Virus record (IMG/VR): IMGVR_UViG_2534681673_000006
Coordinates: 1 to 15,337 of that record
Origin: a virus
Taxonomy: Duplodnaviria; Heunggongvirae; Uroviricota; Caudoviricetes
Strand: one strand, 5' to 3'
Length of the DNA: 15,337 nt
The notes under the pieces are model-generated. The model did no database searches, was not told where the DNA came from, and was given only the letters and a program-made list of their open reading frames with translations. The number at the start of each line of letters is the position of its first letter. Position 1 is the stretch's first letter. The translations under genes and the position numbers were made by a program. This document shows positions 9,146 through 15,337 of this stretch, one piece after another.

Positions 9146-9335
9146 CCCACTTTTACCCCCCACTTTTCACAATTCCCCATCTCGTTAAAGGCGTGGGATT
9201 TGTAATTTTTATCATGCTGTTTCATAAGGATTTTTTTGCTCCCCACTTTTTGGGATGTATACAGGTCAAAAAGTGGGGGATTGTGTTTAAATTTTGTTAA
9301 ATTCCCCATACCCACCACTTTTGCCACCCACTTTT
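9146..9335. repeat. Iteron array (CCCACTTTT, at least 6 copies, both orientations); candidate replication origin
   Basis: Copies at 9146, 9159, 9242, 9269 (inverted), 9314 and 9327, including a perfect IR ccccacttttt-17 nt-aaaaagtgggg. AT-rich spacers. Directly downstream of the replication ATPase stop (9335). Confidence 0.55.
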
Positions 9336-10318
9336 TACAGTGGCCCTACATCATCGCCGTCAACATAGATAACGCCGTCTTTTTCCAGCTTGCCCAGCCA
9401 GCGCCGGAAGTGCTTTATTTCGTACCCCAGTTTTTTCATGTCATCACGTAACAGCGGGATCGTGCACTTGTCGCCGTTCTGTGTGCGTGAACGGATACAC
9501 CCCCATAGCGCGGTATGGTTTTCCGTCTTGTTGCCTGCCTCTTCGATGCGCTCCAGTTCAACGGGAGGGCGCGGCTTATCCACCACCACCAGCGACGAGA
9601 TTAACTCCCCGTCAGCGTCGGTAAAAAGCTCCACCACCCGCAAATCATAGGCAGCCTCTTTGAGTTCCTCCGCGTCCTTCATTTTGGTGCATGAGATAAC
9701 CAGCGCTTCGCTTCCTGCGTCCTCCCTGCGTATCCGGTATTCAGCATCCAGCGAAGCACGAAATGCACTGGAACCGCGCGCGCCTTTCGTCTCATCCTTG
9801 CCGGAATGGTGAACCACCAGCACCGTGGCCCCTGTGCGTCGTTTCAGTTCGTCACAACCACGGATAAACGCCCCCATATCACGGGAATCATTTTCATCAT
9901 TCCCACCAAAGCAACGCGCCAGCGTATCCAGAATAATCATGCGTACAGGTTTACCCGTTTCCCGCTCCACCTGACGGGCAGCGATAACCATTTCATCAAC
10001 ATCAAGCGGGGCAGCCGGAAAGATGGGGCGGTTTACCAGATACAGATTTTTCACCTGCTCATCGTGCACAACCTCCCAGGCTTTTACACGACGCGGAACA
10101 CCTATACCGCCTTCACCAACCACATAGAGAACCGCACCATGTGCAACCCTGCGGCCTCCCCACTGGCGACCAGTGGCAACATGGCACGCCCACGATCCGG
10201 CAAGGAATGATTTATAGGACCCGCTAGCCCCGTATATGCTGCATAGCGATACCGCCGGAATAATCCCCTTAACCACGTAATCCAGTTGCGTGTCATATCC
10301 GGTAGATCCAACGCTCAT
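9335..10318 (-). CDS. Replication ATPase, AAA_25 / RepA-like (RecA-fold helicase or loader) with C-terminal winged-helix-like domain
   Basis: 327 aa; Walker A GASGSYKS, Walker B MIILDT, VVHHSGKDETKGARGSSAF motif typical of AAA_25 proteins. ATGA overlap with upstream gene. Confidence 0.75.
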   Translation of the reverse strand: MSVGSTGYDTQLDYVVKGIIPAVSLCSIYGASGSYKSFLAGSWACHVATGRQWGGRRVAHGAVLYVVGEGGIGVPRRVKAWEVVHDEQVKNLYLVNRPIFPAAPLDVDEMVIAARQVERETGKPVRMIILDTLARCFGGNDENDSRDMGAFIRGCDELKRRTGATVLVVHHSGKDETKGARGSSAFRASLDAEYRIRREDAGSEALVISCTKMKDAEELKEAAYDLRVVELFTDADGELISSLVVVDKPRPPVELERIEEAGNKTENHTALWGCIRSRTQNGDKCTIPLLRDDMKKLGYEIKHFRRWLGKLEKDGVIYVDGDDVGPL

Positions 10319-10734
10319 CGGTAGCGTGGTTTTTCGCTGGTGGTTTTTTCTTCCGCCGGCTCTTTCCCGCGCACCCGTTCCAGGTATTCGCGCCAGTTCT
10401 CCCGCATATGGCTGTGCATCCCTTCGGGGTAATAATTCGCATCAGTTACACCCGCCGCCGCCAGCTTGTGCGCAATGGCATTAATATTTGATGGCCTGAT
10501 GTGGCCTGCCTTGTACAGCCGGACACAATAGCGCCCCTCGTCGATGATTCTCAGGTCTGCCAGTTCATCCAGTTGATCATCAGCCAGCACAACGGGAGGC
10601 ACATTATCGCCAGCCAGTCGCCCGTCCTGTTCCTGCCACTGTTTCGCATGTGCCCAGGCATCACTACCCGCAAAAATAATGACTTCGGTCATCTTGTCGT
10701 AAGGCTGTTTTTTTAAGTTCGGTGCGCTTTTCAT
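10315..10734 (-). CDS. Hypothetical protein, 139 aa, translationally coupled to the replication ATPase
   Basis: ATGA overlaps at both ends. No recognisable domain; position suggests a replication accessory role. Confidence 0.5.
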   Translation of the reverse strand: MKSAPNLKKQPYDKMTEVIIFAGSDAWAHAKQWQEQDGRLAGDNVPPVVLADDQLDELADLRIIDEGRYCVRLYKAGHIRPSNINAIAHKLAAAGVTDANYYPEGMHSHMRENWREYLERVRGKEPAEEKTTSEKPRYR

Positions 10735-11495: not shown

Positions 11496-11928
11496 AACCC
11501 CCCCCATTTTCACAATCAGCAACAAGAATATTTTTAGCGTCATTCAGCGACCGCGTTGCGGTGTATCGGATACATTCCAGGGCGAATAGTGTGTATTCTT
11601 CCCTTTCTTCCTTTTGTGCAAGCTCTGCTGTGCATTCAATATCAATAAGCGCGTGCATCAGCGTAGTGAGTGCGGCGGCGGCTGCGTCCGGTGTGGTTTT
11701 ATTGCACATGTACCCCTCCGCATTTTTTTCGTTAGAAATAAGCGTTCTTCTTTCCTGTTCATCGATCAGGAATACGCAGACCTCACCGCTAAGGCGTTTA
11801 AGTAAGCCGATGATTGCCCCTGATTCGCTGTCGGTCATCATGCCTGGGTAATCCTCTGCCAGTGCGCAAATAACTTCGATTTGGTGGGCGCGTTCTGCTG
11901 CCTGTTGTAGTGTGATTTCCTGGCTCAT
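11488..11928 (-). CDS. Hypothetical protein, 146 aa
   Basis: GGGGGT SD; ATGA overlap with upstream gene. No recognisable domain. Confidence 0.5.
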   Translation of the reverse strand: MSQEITLQQAAERAHQIEVICALAEDYPGMMTDSESGAIIGLLKRLSGEVCVFLIDEQERRTLISNEKNAEGYMCNKTTPDAAAAALTTLMHALIDIECTAELAQKEEREEYTLFALECIRYTATRSLNDAKNILVADCENGGGYA

Positions 11929-12125
11929 AAGCCTACCCCCTGACGAATACGGGCGGCGAATACCATCACGCAGCCAGCCGGGGATTGCTGGCGTGCGTTC
12001 TGTTCGCTAGTGGCCTCGATGGTAATCACGCGCGGTTGTGCCGTGCTCAGGGCGATAAAACGCCAGGTGAATTTATTCAGGTTGTGCAAGTCCCGCCCTT
12101 GCGGGTGTGTGGTATGATTTCTCAT
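11925..12125 (-). CDS. Small protein, 66 aa, first gene of the leftward early operon; possibly Icd-like (tentative)
   Basis: Start at ATG 12125 with GAGGT SD. HPQGR and FAAR motifs resemble, from memory, P4-type Icd-like proteins. Downstream of the divergent operator region. Confidence 0.4.
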   Translation of the reverse strand: MRNHTTHPQGRDLHNLNKFTWRFIALSTAQPRVITIEATSEQNARQQSPAGCVMVFAARIRQGVGL

Positions 12126-12152
12126 AGCTACCTCGATACTGTTGCTATCGTT

Positions 12153-12197
12153 GGTGGTTAGACGCCCTGCATGTGTTGCGAGCACTGCGGGGCGTTG
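12153..12197. repeat. Conserved ~45-bp stem-loop element, copy A; copy B at 12943-12992
   Basis: ggttagacgccc(t/c)g(c/t)atgtgtt...cactgcggggcgttg; about 85% identical. Both copies can form a 10-bp stem with one mismatch; loops differ. Confidence 0.5.
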
Positions 12198-12223
12198 CTT
12201 AATTTGAGTGACAAAACTCAAAC

Positions 12224-12279
12224 TGTGCGCACAGATTAAAATCATATGTGCGCACAGATTAAAATCATATGTGCGCACA
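12224..12279. promoter_or_regulatory. Operator array: three copies of perfect palindrome TGTGCGCACA in 23-bp tandem repeats, in the divergent promoter region
   Basis: Palindromes at 12224-12233, 12247-12256, 12270-12279; repeat unit tgtgcgcacagattaaaatcata. A partial half-site tgtgcgcc sits at 12317-12324 near a candidate TTAACA-17-TATTGT promoter for the RHH gene. Confidence 0.55.
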
Positions 12280-12353
12280 TGTCAATACTTAACATCTCAT
12301 TTTTTTTGCTGTATTGTGTGCGCCCATAAAGTCCATTTAAGTGAGGTGCATCA

Positions 12354-12551
12354 ATGTCTAGCGGTAACACAAACAACAAATCAGCAAAGAAAAATATTCG
12401 ATTCCCACATGAGCTTATAGATGGGATTGATGCCAGCGTTGAACAAGAAAAATTAACTAATCCTAGTGCTAATTTTTCCGCATGGGTCTTAGATGCCTGT
12501 GGACGCAAATTAAAATATGAACAGCGCCGGAAGGCCAAAGAATCAGAATAA
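12354..12551 (+). CDS. Ribbon-helix-helix (CopG/Arc-like) DNA-binding protein, cassette 1
   Basis: 65 aa; GAGGTG SD 5 nt upstream. KNIRFPHELIDGIDASVEQEK...SANFSAWVLDACGRKL fits an RHH strand-helix-helix. Paralogous to the 13113-13292 protein. Confidence 0.65.
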   Translation: MSSGNTNNKSAKKNIRFPHELIDGIDASVEQEKLTNPSANFSAWVLDACGRKLKYEQRRKAKESE

Positions 12552-12600
12552 TCACTATCAGCGCCGTGGTGTGAGGTACTACGGCGCATTGCTTTACAGG
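12527..12600 (+). repeat. ~74-bp near-identical junction element (second copy 13268-13341) spanning the RHH gene 3' end and a hairpin
   Basis: aaggccaaagaatcagaataat(c/t)actatcagcgccgtgg(t/c)gtgaggtactacggcgcattgctttacagg. Stem gcgccgtgg/ctacggcgc with a GAGG-containing loop. Confidence 0.55.
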
Positions 12601-12608
12601 GCAGTAAC

Positions 12609-12836
12609 ATGACCAACAACACACTATCACCAATACAAGACACGCAAACGCAAGATGATGAAATCATCCGGCAAAGGCAGTCAGAAGCCTGCGCCAGACT
12701 TGAGGAAGAACTAACCAGAACAAAAATACCACCACCAGCGCCGCGCTTAGTTCCACCAGAAAAATTTGCCCTTGAAGATTTTGTCGATAAATACCCACGG
12801 CGGCTTAAATCCGGCAAAAACCGACCGCCAGGATGA
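12609..12836 (+). CDS. Small partner protein, cassette 1, 75 aa, unknown function
   Basis: Starts MTN; C-terminal motif FALEDFVDKYPRR is shared with the cassette-2 partner (FVLDEFLKKYSR). Proline-rich middle. No known domain. Confidence 0.5.
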   Translation: MTNNTLSPIQDTQTQDDEIIRQRQSEACARLEEELTRTKIPPPAPRLVPPEKFALEDFVDKYPRRLKSGKNRPPG

Positions 12837-12999
12837 GTGCACAAAACCGAACTATGAAACGGATTATTCCGTTTCCGGGGCGTTTGTGTGTGTATAAAGA
12901 GTAAGCTATGCTCTTTTATAGCCATAATCGTTACCTCAATTAATGGTTTGGTTAGACGCCCCGTATGTGTTCCCATCACTGCGGGGCGTTGTTGTTTTG

Positions 13000-13092
13000 G
13001 GTGTATTTCACCTTTATTTTTAAATCTACATTCAGGTGAAATACACCGCAAGACTTTTTTTATCTTTTTTTTTGCGTATACTGAAATACACC
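13000..13092. promoter_or_regulatory. Operator/promoter of cassette 2: perfect 13-bp inverted repeat ggtgtatttcacc / ggtgaaatacacc plus a third half-site overlapping a TATACT -10
   Basis: Arms at 13000-13012 and 13035-13047 (22-bp spacer); tgaaatacacc at 13082-13092 directly after TATACT (13077-13082). AGGAG SD follows. Confidence 0.55.
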
Positions 13093-13112
13093 GATTATCA
13101 GGAGAACCAGAA

Positions 13113-13292
13113 ATGGCAACAGGTGCAAAGAACGCAAAATCACAAATGACAACGGTCAGAATCCCGCATGAGGTAATGACCGATATTGAGCAACTTAAAG
13201 AACCTGGCGAAAGTACCGCCGGATTTCTAGTTACGGCAGCAAAAGGCGAGATCAAACGCCGCCAGCGCCGCAAGGCCAAAGAATCAGAATAA
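13113..13292 (+). CDS. Ribbon-helix-helix DNA-binding protein, cassette 2
   Basis: 59 aa from ATG 13113 (AGGAG SD). TTVRIPHEVMTDIEQLK...TAGFLVTAAKGEIKRRQ is paralogous to cassette 1 with divergent DNA. Shared C-terminus RRKAKESE. Confidence 0.65.
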   Translation: MATGAKNAKSQMTTVRIPHEVMTDIEQLKEPGESTAGFLVTAAKGEIKRRQRRKAKESE

Positions 13293-13349
13293 TTACTATC
13301 AGCGCCGTGGCGTGAGGTACTACGGCGCATTGCTTTACAGGTACACACA

Positions 13350-13553
13350 ATGACCAATAAAGAATCAACCAATACACCATCGCAAAAAACGAACAGAGAG
13401 CACGAAAATATGGCGCTCGAGCATGAATCAGAAAGATTCGCTCCATGCGCTTTTGTCCTTGATGAGTTTCTAAAAAAATATTCACGTTCTGAACGGATGA
13501 AAATGGCAGCACAATACGGCCCCAACAAGCAAGGTAATTGCCCACCAGCCTGA
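13350..13553 (+). CDS. Small partner protein, cassette 2, 67 aa, unknown function
   Basis: Starts MTN; same position relative to the junction hairpin as the 12609 gene; shares the F.L(E/D)(D/E)F..KY.R motif. Confidence 0.5.
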   Translation: MTNKESTNTPSQKTNREHENMALEHESERFAPCAFVLDEFLKKYSRSERMKMAAQYGPNKQGNCPPA

Positions 13554-13621
13554 TCACGGTTATCATGTTCGGGCTTATGATTGTTGACACATACGGCGCA
13601 GCGGGTTAATTGTTCAGAAAG

Positions 13622-13649
13622 GCGGTTCCATATCGGGACCGCTTTTTTT
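13622..13649 (+). terminator. Rho-independent terminator of the plus-strand RHH operon
   Basis: Stem gcggttcc/gggaccgc (8 bp, one G.U), loop atatc, followed by TTTTTTT. Confidence 0.6.
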
Positions 13650-13765
13650 ATGCCTGAAAATACCCTATAGCATGGCTTTTCAGATTCACCAGGGCGAACG
13701 AATCCCCGCCCCTGTACGGGCGTATATTTCATCATGGTTATACCTCAGTATTATGGCGTTTATTC

Positions 13766-13789
13766 CCGATACCGAGATCCCGGTATCGG
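13766..13789. promoter_or_regulatory. Perfect 9-bp inverted repeat ccgataccg-agatcc-cggtatcgg downstream of alpA
   Basis: Read from sequence. No U-tract on either strand, so more likely a protein site or an mRNA 3' stabiliser than a terminator. Confidence 0.35.
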
Positions 13790-13829
13790 TCAATAATGGA
13801 TTGGTGGTGGCTGTGTGCCGCCAGTCTTT

Positions 13830-14018
13830 TTAGTGAACTGCCTTGCAGCTATCCTTCCAGGCCAAAACCTCAGATAAAGACCAGCCAACAGAACGCCCGC
13901 CAAGTTTACGACGTGATGGGAATTGTCCGGCCTTTTCCAGGCGGTAGCGGCATGAGCGGCTAAGGCCTGTTAGCTTTTCGCATTCTTTTTCACGTATAAA
14001 CCGATCAGTGCTTAACAC
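13830..14018 (-). CDS. alpA: AlpA-family transcriptional regulator / excisionase-like HTH protein
   Basis: 62 aa; RFIREKECEKLTGLSRSCRYRLEKAGQFPSRRKLGGRSVGWSLSEVLAWK matches the AlpA/Xis-type HTH pattern. Apparent GTG start with GGGGG SD. Adjacent to integrase. Confidence 0.75.
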   Translation of the reverse strand: MLSTDRFIREKECEKLTGLSRSCRYRLEKAGQFPSRRKLGGRSVGWSLSEVLAWKDSCKAVH

Positions 14019-14179
14019 TATTGCCCCCTTTCGTTTCTTAAAGAGTTATTTCGTGTTCTATTGCGTTGGGATGTGTCTGATTGTGTCAGGATGATTCAGA
14101 GTTGGCAAATGTTGGTGTCGCATGGTTTACAGAAAGAGGAATAATCAGGATAAAATCATTTAAATTCATGTTAATACAA

Positions 14180-14209
14180 AGGCATAAAATCTTGTTTTAT
14201 GCCTTTTTT
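14180..14209. terminator. Rho-independent terminator between int and alpA, possibly bidirectional
   Basis: Stem ggcataaaa/ttttatgcc (9 bp perfect), loop tcttg. TTTTTT follows on the plus strand; the interrupted run UUUGUAUU follows on the minus strand. Confidence 0.55.
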
Positions 14210-14308
14210 CGCACGCTTTAACGCGTAATTCACTAATGTATAAAAAACCAGCTGAGCATTAAAAATCAGTAACTTACAAATCTGTATTCTTTTTGGCCTC
14301 TTGTTCGT

Positions 14309-14375
14309 GATTGTGTCACGTTGTTGCACATTGTTTCACGTTGTATCTGTGCACTTATCCAGTATGCGCATACTG
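14309..14375. promoter_or_regulatory. Four 10-bp phased repeats (consensus nnCACGTTGT) followed by perfect 16-bp palindrome CAGTATGCGCATACTG
   Basis: tcgtgattgt gtcacgttgt tgcacattgt ttcacgttgt at 14309-14352; palindrome at 14360-14375. The 10-mer gattgtgtca recurs at 14079-14088 in the alpA promoter-proximal region. Confidence 0.5.
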
Positions 14376-14392
14376 AAAAAACACGAAAAAAA

Positions 14393-15337
14393 TTATTTTA
14401 TTCTGGTTACTGGTAGCGTGGTTACGTTTTCATGTGTTCCCGCCAGTATCTCCAACCGCTCCACCCACATATCAAGCGCATTGCGTTTCGCATCAATATA
14501 GCGGGAATGGTTGTACACGCGTTGCATTCCTGGCATCTGGTGGCCTGTAAGCTGCTCCACGACGTGAGGATCAACGCCTAAATCGTTCAGCATGGTTGTA
14601 AAGGTGCGCCGGATGTCATGCAATGACCATTGAGGGTGTTTTAGCCTCCTGTGCGCTAATCTGCCGTACTGCGATACGCTAGCCTCCTGTTTCACTTCCC
14701 CCAGTAATAAGCCCGTGTGCCTGTTCTGGTCCACCAGCCGCGTGACGAACGGCAGGATCGCTTCCGGTATGGGCCGGAATATTGCAACCTTCGTTTTGCT
14801 GTGCTCCTTCGGAACGGTCCATAGCATTTCGGTAAAATCCCACTCGCTGATCTCCGATAACCTCAGTTCTACCGTCCTGGCTCCGAAGACAATCAGGAGG
14901 CGGATTAACGCGACGTAGTAAGGAGAAAATATTTTTTTATCCAGCGCCTGCAATAACTCGCCCAGTTCTTTGGTGCTTAAGACACGTTCGCTTATATCCG
15001 GTTTTTTCCCAACGTCCGCCACGTTCAGATCATCGAGAACGTTGCTGATTGCAAAGCGCCGCCTCCGGCAGAACTTAAGCGCCTGCTTGCATGTCTGTAG
15101 CACGAATCCGGCAGTAACAGGTGTTCGCTTTGCCACCTGGTCAAAACAGGCCAGCCAGTGCCGTAGCTCGCATTTATCCAGCGGCATAGCGCCAATGTAC
15201 TGTATTACGTGATTATTAAGTCGCCTTTTCAGGGCGATATAATCCACGCGGTTTTCCTTTACGTACGACTCAAGCCAGTAGGTGAGCGCATCGCCAACCG
15301 TTACCGGCTTTAACGCTTCCTGTACGGCGTAATTCAT
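14393..15337 (-). CDS. int: Tyrosine site-specific integrase (phage integrase family)
   Basis: 314 aa; core-binding-like N-terminus and catalytic C-terminus with R...HDIRRTF...GHQMPGMQRVYNHSRY (R-H-R-Y signature). ATG sits at the last three bases of the window, so any N-terminal extension cannot be assessed. Confidence 0.85.
   Translation of the reverse strand: MNYAVQEALKPVTVGDALTYWLESYVKENRVDYIALKRRLNNHVIQYIGAMPLDKCELRHWLACFDQVAKRTPVTAGFVLQTCKQALKFCRRRRFAISNVLDDLNVADVGKKPDISERVLSTKELGELLQALDKKIFSPYYVALIRLLIVFGARTVELRLSEISEWDFTEMLWTVPKEHSKTKVAIFRPIPEAILPFVTRLVDQNRHTGLLLGEVKQEASVSQYGRLAHRRLKHPQWSLHDIRRTFTTMLNDLGVDPHVVEQLTGHQMPGMQRVYNHSRYIDAKRNALDMWVERLEILAGTHENVTTLPVTRIK

Follow-up and report, generated by a model that had tools for sequence, protein, structure and literature searches.

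The three copies of the palindrome TGTGCGCACA found in a 15,337-nucleotide stretch of satellite DNA (the window) are very probably operators of the small ribbon-helix-helix (RHH) protein encoded next to them at 12354-12551, as judged by comparison with related loci. The evidence is best read as describing the operators of an autoregulated RHH repressor whose specificity can be swapped, and our confidence that this protein also serves as the maintenance repressor of the element is lower. In a preliminary description of this DNA, the palindromes had been likened to the tripartite operator of a lysogeny-type switch. The features on which our argument is built are listed here, with P_L and P_R standing for the leftward and the rightward promoter and O1 to O3 for the operator positions of the family.

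11925..12125, minus strand: Icd-like gene (66 aa), first of the leftward operon and proposed target of repression; NF033153, E=2.3e-19, and Icd-like in the annotation of relatives.
12125..12206, plus strand, ends approximate: candidate antisense small RNA of ~80 nt with conserved structure, complementary to the ribosome-binding site, start codon and leader of the Icd-like gene.
12224..12233: putative extra operator copy, TGTGCGCACA, exact match, at about +16 to +26 of the predicted leftward transcript.
12247..12256: putative operator at family site O1, TGTGCGCACA, abutting the P_L -10 and lying over the predicted start; 23 bp from O2, as in most of 44 loci.
12256..12285, minus strand: predicted promoter P_L with -35 TTGACA (12285-12280), 18-bp spacer and -10 TAATCT (12261-12256), at a conserved position.
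12270..12279: putative operator at family site O2, TGTGCGCACA, filling the P_L spacer right after the -35 and preceding a conserved GTCAA in nearly all loci.
12289..12317, plus strand: predicted promoter P_R of the RHH gene with -35 TTAACA (12289-12294), 17-bp spacer and -10 TATTGT (12312-12317).
12317..12326: putative operator at family site O3, TGTGCGCCCA, one mismatch, overlapping the last base of the P_R -10 and the predicted start.
12354..12551, plus strand: gene for the 65-aa YlcI/YnfO (DUF3950) protein, the proposed RHH repressor; NF041551, E=3.5e-16.
12921..13292, plus strand: second module of other specificity, with an RNA copy, three repeats and the RHH2 gene.
About 12921-12999, plus strand: second copy of the candidate antisense RNA.
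13000-13012 (GGTGTATTTCACC), 13035-13047 (GGTGAAATACACC) and 13082-13093 (TGAAATACACCG): repeats of the second module.
13113-13292, plus strand: RHH2 gene, YlcI-type; NF041551, E=3.8e-17.

An exact-match count over the whole window found TGTGCGCACA exactly three times, at 12224-12233, 12247-12256 and 12270-12279. The chance expectation was 0.03 exact copies, the mean of 200 dinucleotide-preserving shuffles of the window, and three copies were seen in 0/200 of these. Tandem Repeats Finder returned a unit of 23 bp, TGTGCGCACAGATTAAAATCATA, with 2.4 copies, 100% matches and a score of 112. Hence the earlier observation of three perfect palindromes in a 23-bp tandem repeat between divergent genes was borne out by exact matching, by the shuffles and by the repeat search, and the flanking genes are also as claimed. 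The palindromes sit in a gap of 228 bp between the leftward gene at 11925-12125, which is Icd-like (NF033153), and the rightward gene at 12354-12551, which belongs to the YlcI/YnfO family (NF041551). A fourth copy with one mismatch, TGTGCGCCCA, is present at 12317-12326, 37 bp ahead of the ATG of the rightward gene (12354).

By its gene content the window is a capsid-forming PICI (cf-PICI). On the minus strand, Pfam identified TerL, a small terminase (Terminase_4), an HNH endonuclease, head-tail connector, head completion and portal proteins, an S78 prohead protease, the major capsid protein, a replication protein of the RepA type (AAA_25) and a tyrosine integrase, within whose gene the window ends. 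The product of 13830-14018 is an AlpA-type excisionase/regulator according to PHROGs. Tail or lysis genes were not found among the long ORFs of the 15.3-kb window, and the gene set matches that of the capsid-forming PICIs described in bioRxiv 10.1101/2022.09.08.507074. The RepA-family gene at 9335-10734 consists of two overlapping ORFs of 139 aa (10315-10734) and 327 aa (9335-10318). Its counterpart in E. coli 2012C-4221 is a single protein of 469 aa, to which the 327-aa part is identical in 307 of 327 positions and the N-termini are similar by eye. Repeats related to TTGTTCGTGATTGTGTCACG occur between integrase and alpA at 14071-14098 and 14301-14340; one of them adjoins promoter-like elements upstream of alpA, and they could be sites for AlpA or the integrase.

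To place the palindromes in a family context, relatives of the 65-aa protein were collected. A scan restricted to one genome per species yielded 46 loci encoding such relatives, which belong to Enterobacterales and Orbales. The layout was tabulated in 44 loci anchored on the conserved GTCAA, and promoter elements were counted in 39 distinct loci. In nearly all loci, O2 ends one base before GTCAA (TTGAC on the minus strand). O1 starts 23 bp to the left of O2 in most of them and 22-27 bp in a few, and O3 adjoins TAT(A/G)GT, ~30-40 bp upstream of the RHH start codon, in nearly all. The -35 of P_L reads TTGAC(G/A) in 36-39 and its -10 reads TA...T at the fixed distance of 18 bp in 36-38 of the 39 distinct loci. 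The -10 in the window, TAATCT, is weak, agreeing with the consensus at 3/6 positions, and P_L was missing from a consensus promoter scan of the window; the promoter is assigned there because its position is conserved. P_R was listed by that scan with 9/12 matches. Its -10, TAT(A/G)GT beside O3, is conserved among the loci and its -35 is merely T-rich. The -35 elements of P_L and P_R stand back to back with 3 bp between them. At the O3 position (-37 to -39 from the ATG), Rahnella and Klebsiella have a perfect TGTGCGCACA, and an Erwinia locus has a perfect TGTGCGCACA as O3 at -46 from a frameshifted RHH gene. In this last locus (L035, Erwinia tracheiphila, ~2462-2644), the RHH gene is broken at a poly-A run and three perfect TGTGCGCACA sites are retained; the island is probably decaying. 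From the earlier proposal of a tripartite operator we retain that several sites lie on divergent promoters. The conserved trio, however, consists of two tandem sites and the site at 12317-12326, which had been missed.

Among complete E. coli genomes, 1456/5426 match 12126-12560. The K-12 gene ylcI lies in a different context, in prophage DLP12 upstream of nohD, and no palindromes comparable to those of the window were found there, so nothing can be transferred from K-12. One further locus from the scan (L049, NZ_NMZQ01000081.1, 529 bp, 'Veillonella sp. R32') is K-12-like, being near-identical to the ylcI region of DLP12, and this contig is probably a contamination of that assembly.

The three tandem copies had also been taken as the functional unit, and here the comparison led to a different result. 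In E. coli 042, O157:H7 F6321 and 2012C-4221 the region aligns with ~91-94% identity minus exactly 23 bp, leaving two tandem palindromes, and the Rahnella, Klebsiella and Erwinia loci with TGTGCGCACA likewise have two tandem copies. Among the 42 complete E. coli genomes matching 12190-12345, the 30 matches listed all span 133 bp and not 156. The exact three-copy array had no match in IMG/VR, nor did three palindromes at 23-bp spacing in JGI metagenomes. The third tandem copy appears to be strain-specific, a recent duplication of 23 bp. The two spacers of the window have the same sequence, as a recent duplication would lead one to expect, and this fits slippage or unequal exchange involving a pair of 10-bp direct repeats at a distance of 23 bp. 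The leftmost copy (12224-12233) would have arisen by such slippage between two ancestral sites and would now form a further site inside the early transcribed region, where it may tighten repression or be neutral. With a chance that we put slightly below even, it is a neutral slippage product with no function of its own, which would be compatible with the remaining sites being RHH operators. The two copies of the relatives, the identical spacers and the failure to find the three-copy allele in IMG/VR or the JGI metagenomes agree with neutrality. On the other hand, one would expect the same protein to occupy an extra high-affinity site 23 bp away, where it could increase cooperativity or obstruct elongation, and three tandem sites, 23-24 bp apart, also occur in Pantoea dispersa (L029).

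The 65-aa YlcI/YnfO protein is most likely an RHH dimer. Its AlphaFold2 single-chain model (pLDDT 76) contains helices at residues 19-33 and 41-63 that follow an unstructured N-terminus and, as modelled, it resembles an RHH monomer without the partner strand. The best structural matches were RHH antitoxins (TacA, CopG-type, ParD); Foldseek against PDB and PDB sequence searches returned no matches. Only DUF3950 and NF041551 passed as family profiles, with no RHH family profile reaching threshold, and the profiles for Arc, RHH_1, CopG_antitoxin, NikA-like and HicB C-terminus were hit below threshold by single or few family members. A marginal hhalign match aligned residues 10-26 with Arc 7-23 (E=0.005, probability 7%) in a register that sets K12, N14 and R16 opposite Arc Q9, N11 and R13. 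These Arc residues are the base-contacting residues of its strand. Among the aligned family members, R16 never changes, K13 hardly ever does, and variation is seen at positions 12 and 14. The sites behave in a similar way among the loci compared, with a nearly constant outer TGT/ACA and a variable centre. From this we infer a MetJ-like mode, in which each palindrome would be bound by one dimer, the outer G being contacted by Arg16 and the centre by residues 12 and 14.

Comparison of the loci indicates which protein reads the sites. Loci from Escherichia, Rahnella, Klebsiella and Erwinia in which the site is TGTGCGCACA have retained each of the three 10-mers, the sole change being the mismatch in O3 of E. 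coli, whereas the 13-bp spacers diverge among them (GATTAAAATCATG, GTATGTTTCTAAG, GATTACCCCTTTG and GATTAGCCTCATG). This indicates selection on the sites and not on the spacer. O1 and O2 differ on average by 1.3 bases inside a locus as opposed to 3.5 between loci, which shows that the sites of one locus change together. Operator differences correlated with differences at RHH residues 12 and 14 with r=0.60, compared with r=0.21 for the adjacent RNA region and r=0.19 for the rest of the RHH protein. Controlling for the RNA region nearby or for the remainder of the RHH protein left the association in place (partial Mantel r=0.58, p=2e-4), the Mantel p-values being optimistic as the loci are related and not independent samples. 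Individual pairings can be read directly from the loci. A strand motif xYKG or FKG before IRFP goes with the site TGTTTAAACA, TTKG with TGCA(C/T)A(T/A)ACA, KRKD (Gilliamella, Orbus) with TGTCCG(C/T)ACA and AKKH with TGTG(A/C/T)ACCCA. Further types are found in E. coli, namely KKLEARVP with three copies of GGTGTCAGCCACC and QKLQARAP with CTGGATTCCAG/GTGGAATCCAC, and the RHH proteins of four E. coli islands bearing TGTGCGCACA are 98-100% identical. Palindromic sites close to its own promoter that are read by strand residues would be typical of an RHH regulator, and the sites on both promoters in the 44 loci together with the covariation of residues 12 and 14 are consistent with this.

It is quite improbable that the palindromes are bound by another protein, such as the 66-aa Icd-like protein, AlpA or a factor of the host or helper phage. 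The earlier suggestion that a binder is encoded alongside holds for the RHH-like protein of 12354-12551, which the comparative evidence fits, but not for the Icd-like protein. The family of the latter carries the label 'transcriptional repressor' in PHROGs (phrog_6196, phrog_1743), as against host cell division inhibitor in NCBIfam. Distances between Icd-like proteins showed no correlation with operator distances (r=0.085, p=0.14), Icd-like proteins with 87-92% identity go with three operator types (L018, L037, L033), and several loci with a different, a truncated or no Icd-like first gene still keep the operators. AlpA is a DNA-binding regulator of such islands (PMC6092414), but the AlpA-type proteins of the window, 042 and F6321 are only 50-67% identical despite the common operator. 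In the 2012C-4221 island, both AlpA and the replication protein match those of the window. The coexistence of several operator types inside E. coli argues against a host factor. Two host sites were also rejected on inspection: CTGT-GCGC-ACAG has 4 and not 10 bases between CTG and CAG as a LexA site would, and TGTG-CG-CACA is without the 6-bp spacer of CRP.

Iterons are direct repeats with a typical period of ~22-23 bp. The period of 23 bp found here would agree with a replication origin bound by the RepA or primase of the satellite, an explanation that we consider scarcely credible. The same palindromes occur in islands with unrelated or dissimilar replication proteins, i.e. the RepA-type AAA_25 protein in the window, DUF927 in E. 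coli 042 and a primase family in O157 F6321, and the repeat does not follow the type of replication initiator. Moreover, the sites are palindromes whose distance from the -35 and -10 elements is fixed at both promoters, and they covary with the RHH protein.

To the left of the palindromes, the region 12125-12206 encodes a candidate cis-antisense RNA that would cover the Icd-like mRNA at its ribosome-binding site and start codon. Its consensus contains three helices with 22 pairs, and compensatory changes are seen in 16/22. Pairing was possible in 96.5% of the alignment cells; the corresponding values were 84.4% for shuffles and 34-47% after the partner columns had been slid. On the minus strand, the pairing cells dropped to 83.8%, and G-U cells numbered 114 on the plus strand versus 6 on the minus strand. 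Pairing and G-U bias together indicate that the structure belongs to the plus strand. The folding energy of the window sequence was -38.7 kcal/mol (z=-4.8) on the plus strand versus -24.0 on the minus strand. A terminator-like hairpin is located at the 3' end (12161-12196), a T-rich run follows the last helix and a possible extended -10, TGgTATGAT, lies at 12110-12118. Most loci have a TAnnnT element that precedes the complement of the Icd-like start codon by 4 or 10 nt; it overlaps coding sequence, which renders its conservation ambiguous. Rfam returned no credible family, either at the gathering score over the whole window or with E up to 10 over 11800-14400, and there was no match to C4.

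The second module of the window (12921..13292) has a different specificity. Its strand motif is QMTTVRIP and it comes with its own GGTGTATTTCACC-type repeats. The arrangement is looser, with O1 and O2 35 bp apart and inverted, and the Icd-like gene is reduced to a stub. An identical RHH2 protein and upstream region are present in E. coli STEC1587, where they stand behind a first module of another type, and the STEC1587-like similarity to the window starts at ~12522, still within the 3'-terminal part of the first RHH gene. According to this pattern, the part comprising operators and strand behaves as an exchangeable cassette, and the position at which the similarity starts suggests that cassettes are exchanged by recombination.

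Several structures accompany the two RHH genes. Each is directly followed by a conserved hairpin with a 12-bp stem (12561-12587 and 13302-13328), and the hairpins lie in a 98-nt repeat that is 89% identical between its copies (12522-12619 and 13263-13360). The small ORFs after the hairpins (75 aa and 67 aa) both begin with MTN and are without family assignment. A further hairpin with a T run is located at 13798-13827, just past the stop codon of alpA; the rightward RHH2 operon would end there and, speculatively, the hairpin may be a terminator that is bypassed in the leftward direction by an AlpA-type antiterminator. An ORF of 497 aa on the minus strand (12242-13735) was rejected as a gene. 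It runs antisense through both RHH modules, relatives have plus-strand genes annotated there and it is probably spurious.

Based on these findings we propose the following mechanism. The RHH protein would be made from the weak promoter P_R, and P_L would be a strong promoter that drives the Icd-like gene and then the replication, capsid and packaging genes. Leftward transcription would be blocked once repressor sits at 12270-12279 in the P_L spacer and at 12247-12256 over the P_L -10 and +1, P_L thus being shut by occupancy of O2 and O1. At higher concentration, the repressor would also fill the weaker O3 (12317-12326) on the -10 and +1 of P_R and limit its own synthesis. The invariant Arg16 would read the invariant outer TGT/ACA and the variable residues 12 and 14 the variable centre, a pairing that would give the satellites their differing 'immunity' specificities. 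The antisense RNA opposite the Icd-like ribosome-binding site would probably be a second safeguard against leaky expression. Binding, repression, autoregulation and relief of repression are what we infer here from the observed positions, conservation and covariation of the sites and from the fold prediction. The claim of a switch-like arrangement is sustained to the extent that the comparative evidence fits an on/off switch of the main operon of the satellite.

Relief of repression must come from elsewhere, since the RHH protein is without a cleavable domain. According to published work, it is the activator AlpA that turns Gram-negative PICIs on, and their global repressor has been called unclear (PMC6092414). 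AlpA, the transcription of which is induced by the helper phage, was necessary and sufficient for induction of EcCICFT073 (PMC6092414). Read-through from alpA, which points in the same direction as the main operon, could be assisted by AlpA and would be one possibility. A related but different role is conceivable for the RHH protein: it may bind the sites and act like Arc, being made upon induction and turning the leftward operon down after a burst, while quiescence would rest on the absence of AlpA-driven transcription. We consider this unlikely. The weak hhalign similarity is indeed to Arc. However, the RHH gene has a promoter of its own that diverges from P_L and bears an operator, which is the usual layout for a repressor of the silent state, and the -35 of P_L is near-consensus in almost all loci, which implies that P_L needs to be held off.

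In design, the closest analogue of this arrangement would be immI of P22, the Icd-like gene ties it to immI of P1, and the proposed role would be that of Stl. P22 immI resembles the window in having RHH repressors (Arc, Mnt) on divergent promoters (Pant/Pmnt) and an antisense RNA (sar). Nevertheless, sequence similarity is marginal, each module here has one RHH regulator and P22 has two, and the palindromes of 10-14 bp that lie 23 bp apart contrast with a single operator of 21 bp. Furthermore, the element is a satellite and not a phage, and its operon starts with an Icd-like gene instead of an antirepressor gene. With immI of P1 and P7 (c4-icd-ant), the window shares the Icd homologue at the head of the controlled operon (NF033153, E=2.3e-19) and a conserved small structured RNA complementary to the Icd ribosome-binding region. 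Differences are that the RNA is encoded here on the opposite strand as a true cis-antisense RNA and not upstream on the same transcript, that it matches neither C4 nor any other Rfam family, and that promoter control would be exerted by an RHH protein and not by C1. Stl and Rpr of Gram-positive PICIs and SaPIs are comparable in that a satellite-encoded repressor, divergent from the main operon, is proposed to keep the island silent (PMC6092414) and that an SOS-cleavable domain is lacking. They differ from the RHH protein in fold and size, a helper-phage antirepressor is not known for the latter, and induction of Gram-negative PICIs has been published to proceed via AlpA.

The likeness to OR1-3 of lambda, which had been put forward earlier, turned out to be loose. 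Common to both are several related sites between divergent promoters, one of which controls the promoter of the repressor itself. Here, however, the presumed regulator is an RHH and not a helix-turn-helix protein, the third tandem site is not conserved and the geometry is different, one of the back-to-back promoters having two sites and the other one, at distances of 23 and 47 bp. The relatives showed no second, Cro-like regulator gene that is conserved beside the sites. Type II RHH antitoxins (TacA, CopG-type, ParD), the best structural matches, autoregulate via palindromes in their own promoters, but they differ from the protein studied here, which has no conserved toxin gene downstream. A toxin-antitoxin pair was rejected as an assignment: E. 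coli 042 and O157 F6321 lack the 75-aa ORF that follows the RHH gene, and this ORF matches no family.

The kind of mechanism proposed is well known. In the literature searched, no work was found that assigns it to the DUF3950 family or to Gram-negative PICIs; YlcI/YnfO (DUF3950) appeared there in annotation mentions only, without a functional study, and searches of the PICI literature for Icd-like proteins, repressors and ribbon-helix-helix proteins gave the same outcome. In a wider proposal, which we offer tentatively and as somewhat less probable than not, the YlcI/YnfO RHH proteins would be the missing repressors of many Gram-negative PICIs and cf-PICIs. Residues 12 and 14 and the operator triplets would then form exchangeable 'immunity cassettes' that define immunity groups, the cis-antisense RNA would be a second lock on the Icd-like gene, and islands with two cassettes could have immunity to two types of satellite or cross-regulate them.

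If the protein is indeed a sequence-specific repressor of the main operon, a widespread family of unknown function would gain a role, and simple binding and reporter assays would open satellite quiescence and induction in Gram-negative bacteria to study. The loci would provide a natural set of matched pairs of protein residues and DNA bases for studies of RHH recognition, and engineered cf-PICI delivery vehicles could receive orthogonal control cassettes. The proposal touches a question of satellite biology that is still open, and it brings with it a testable recognition code.
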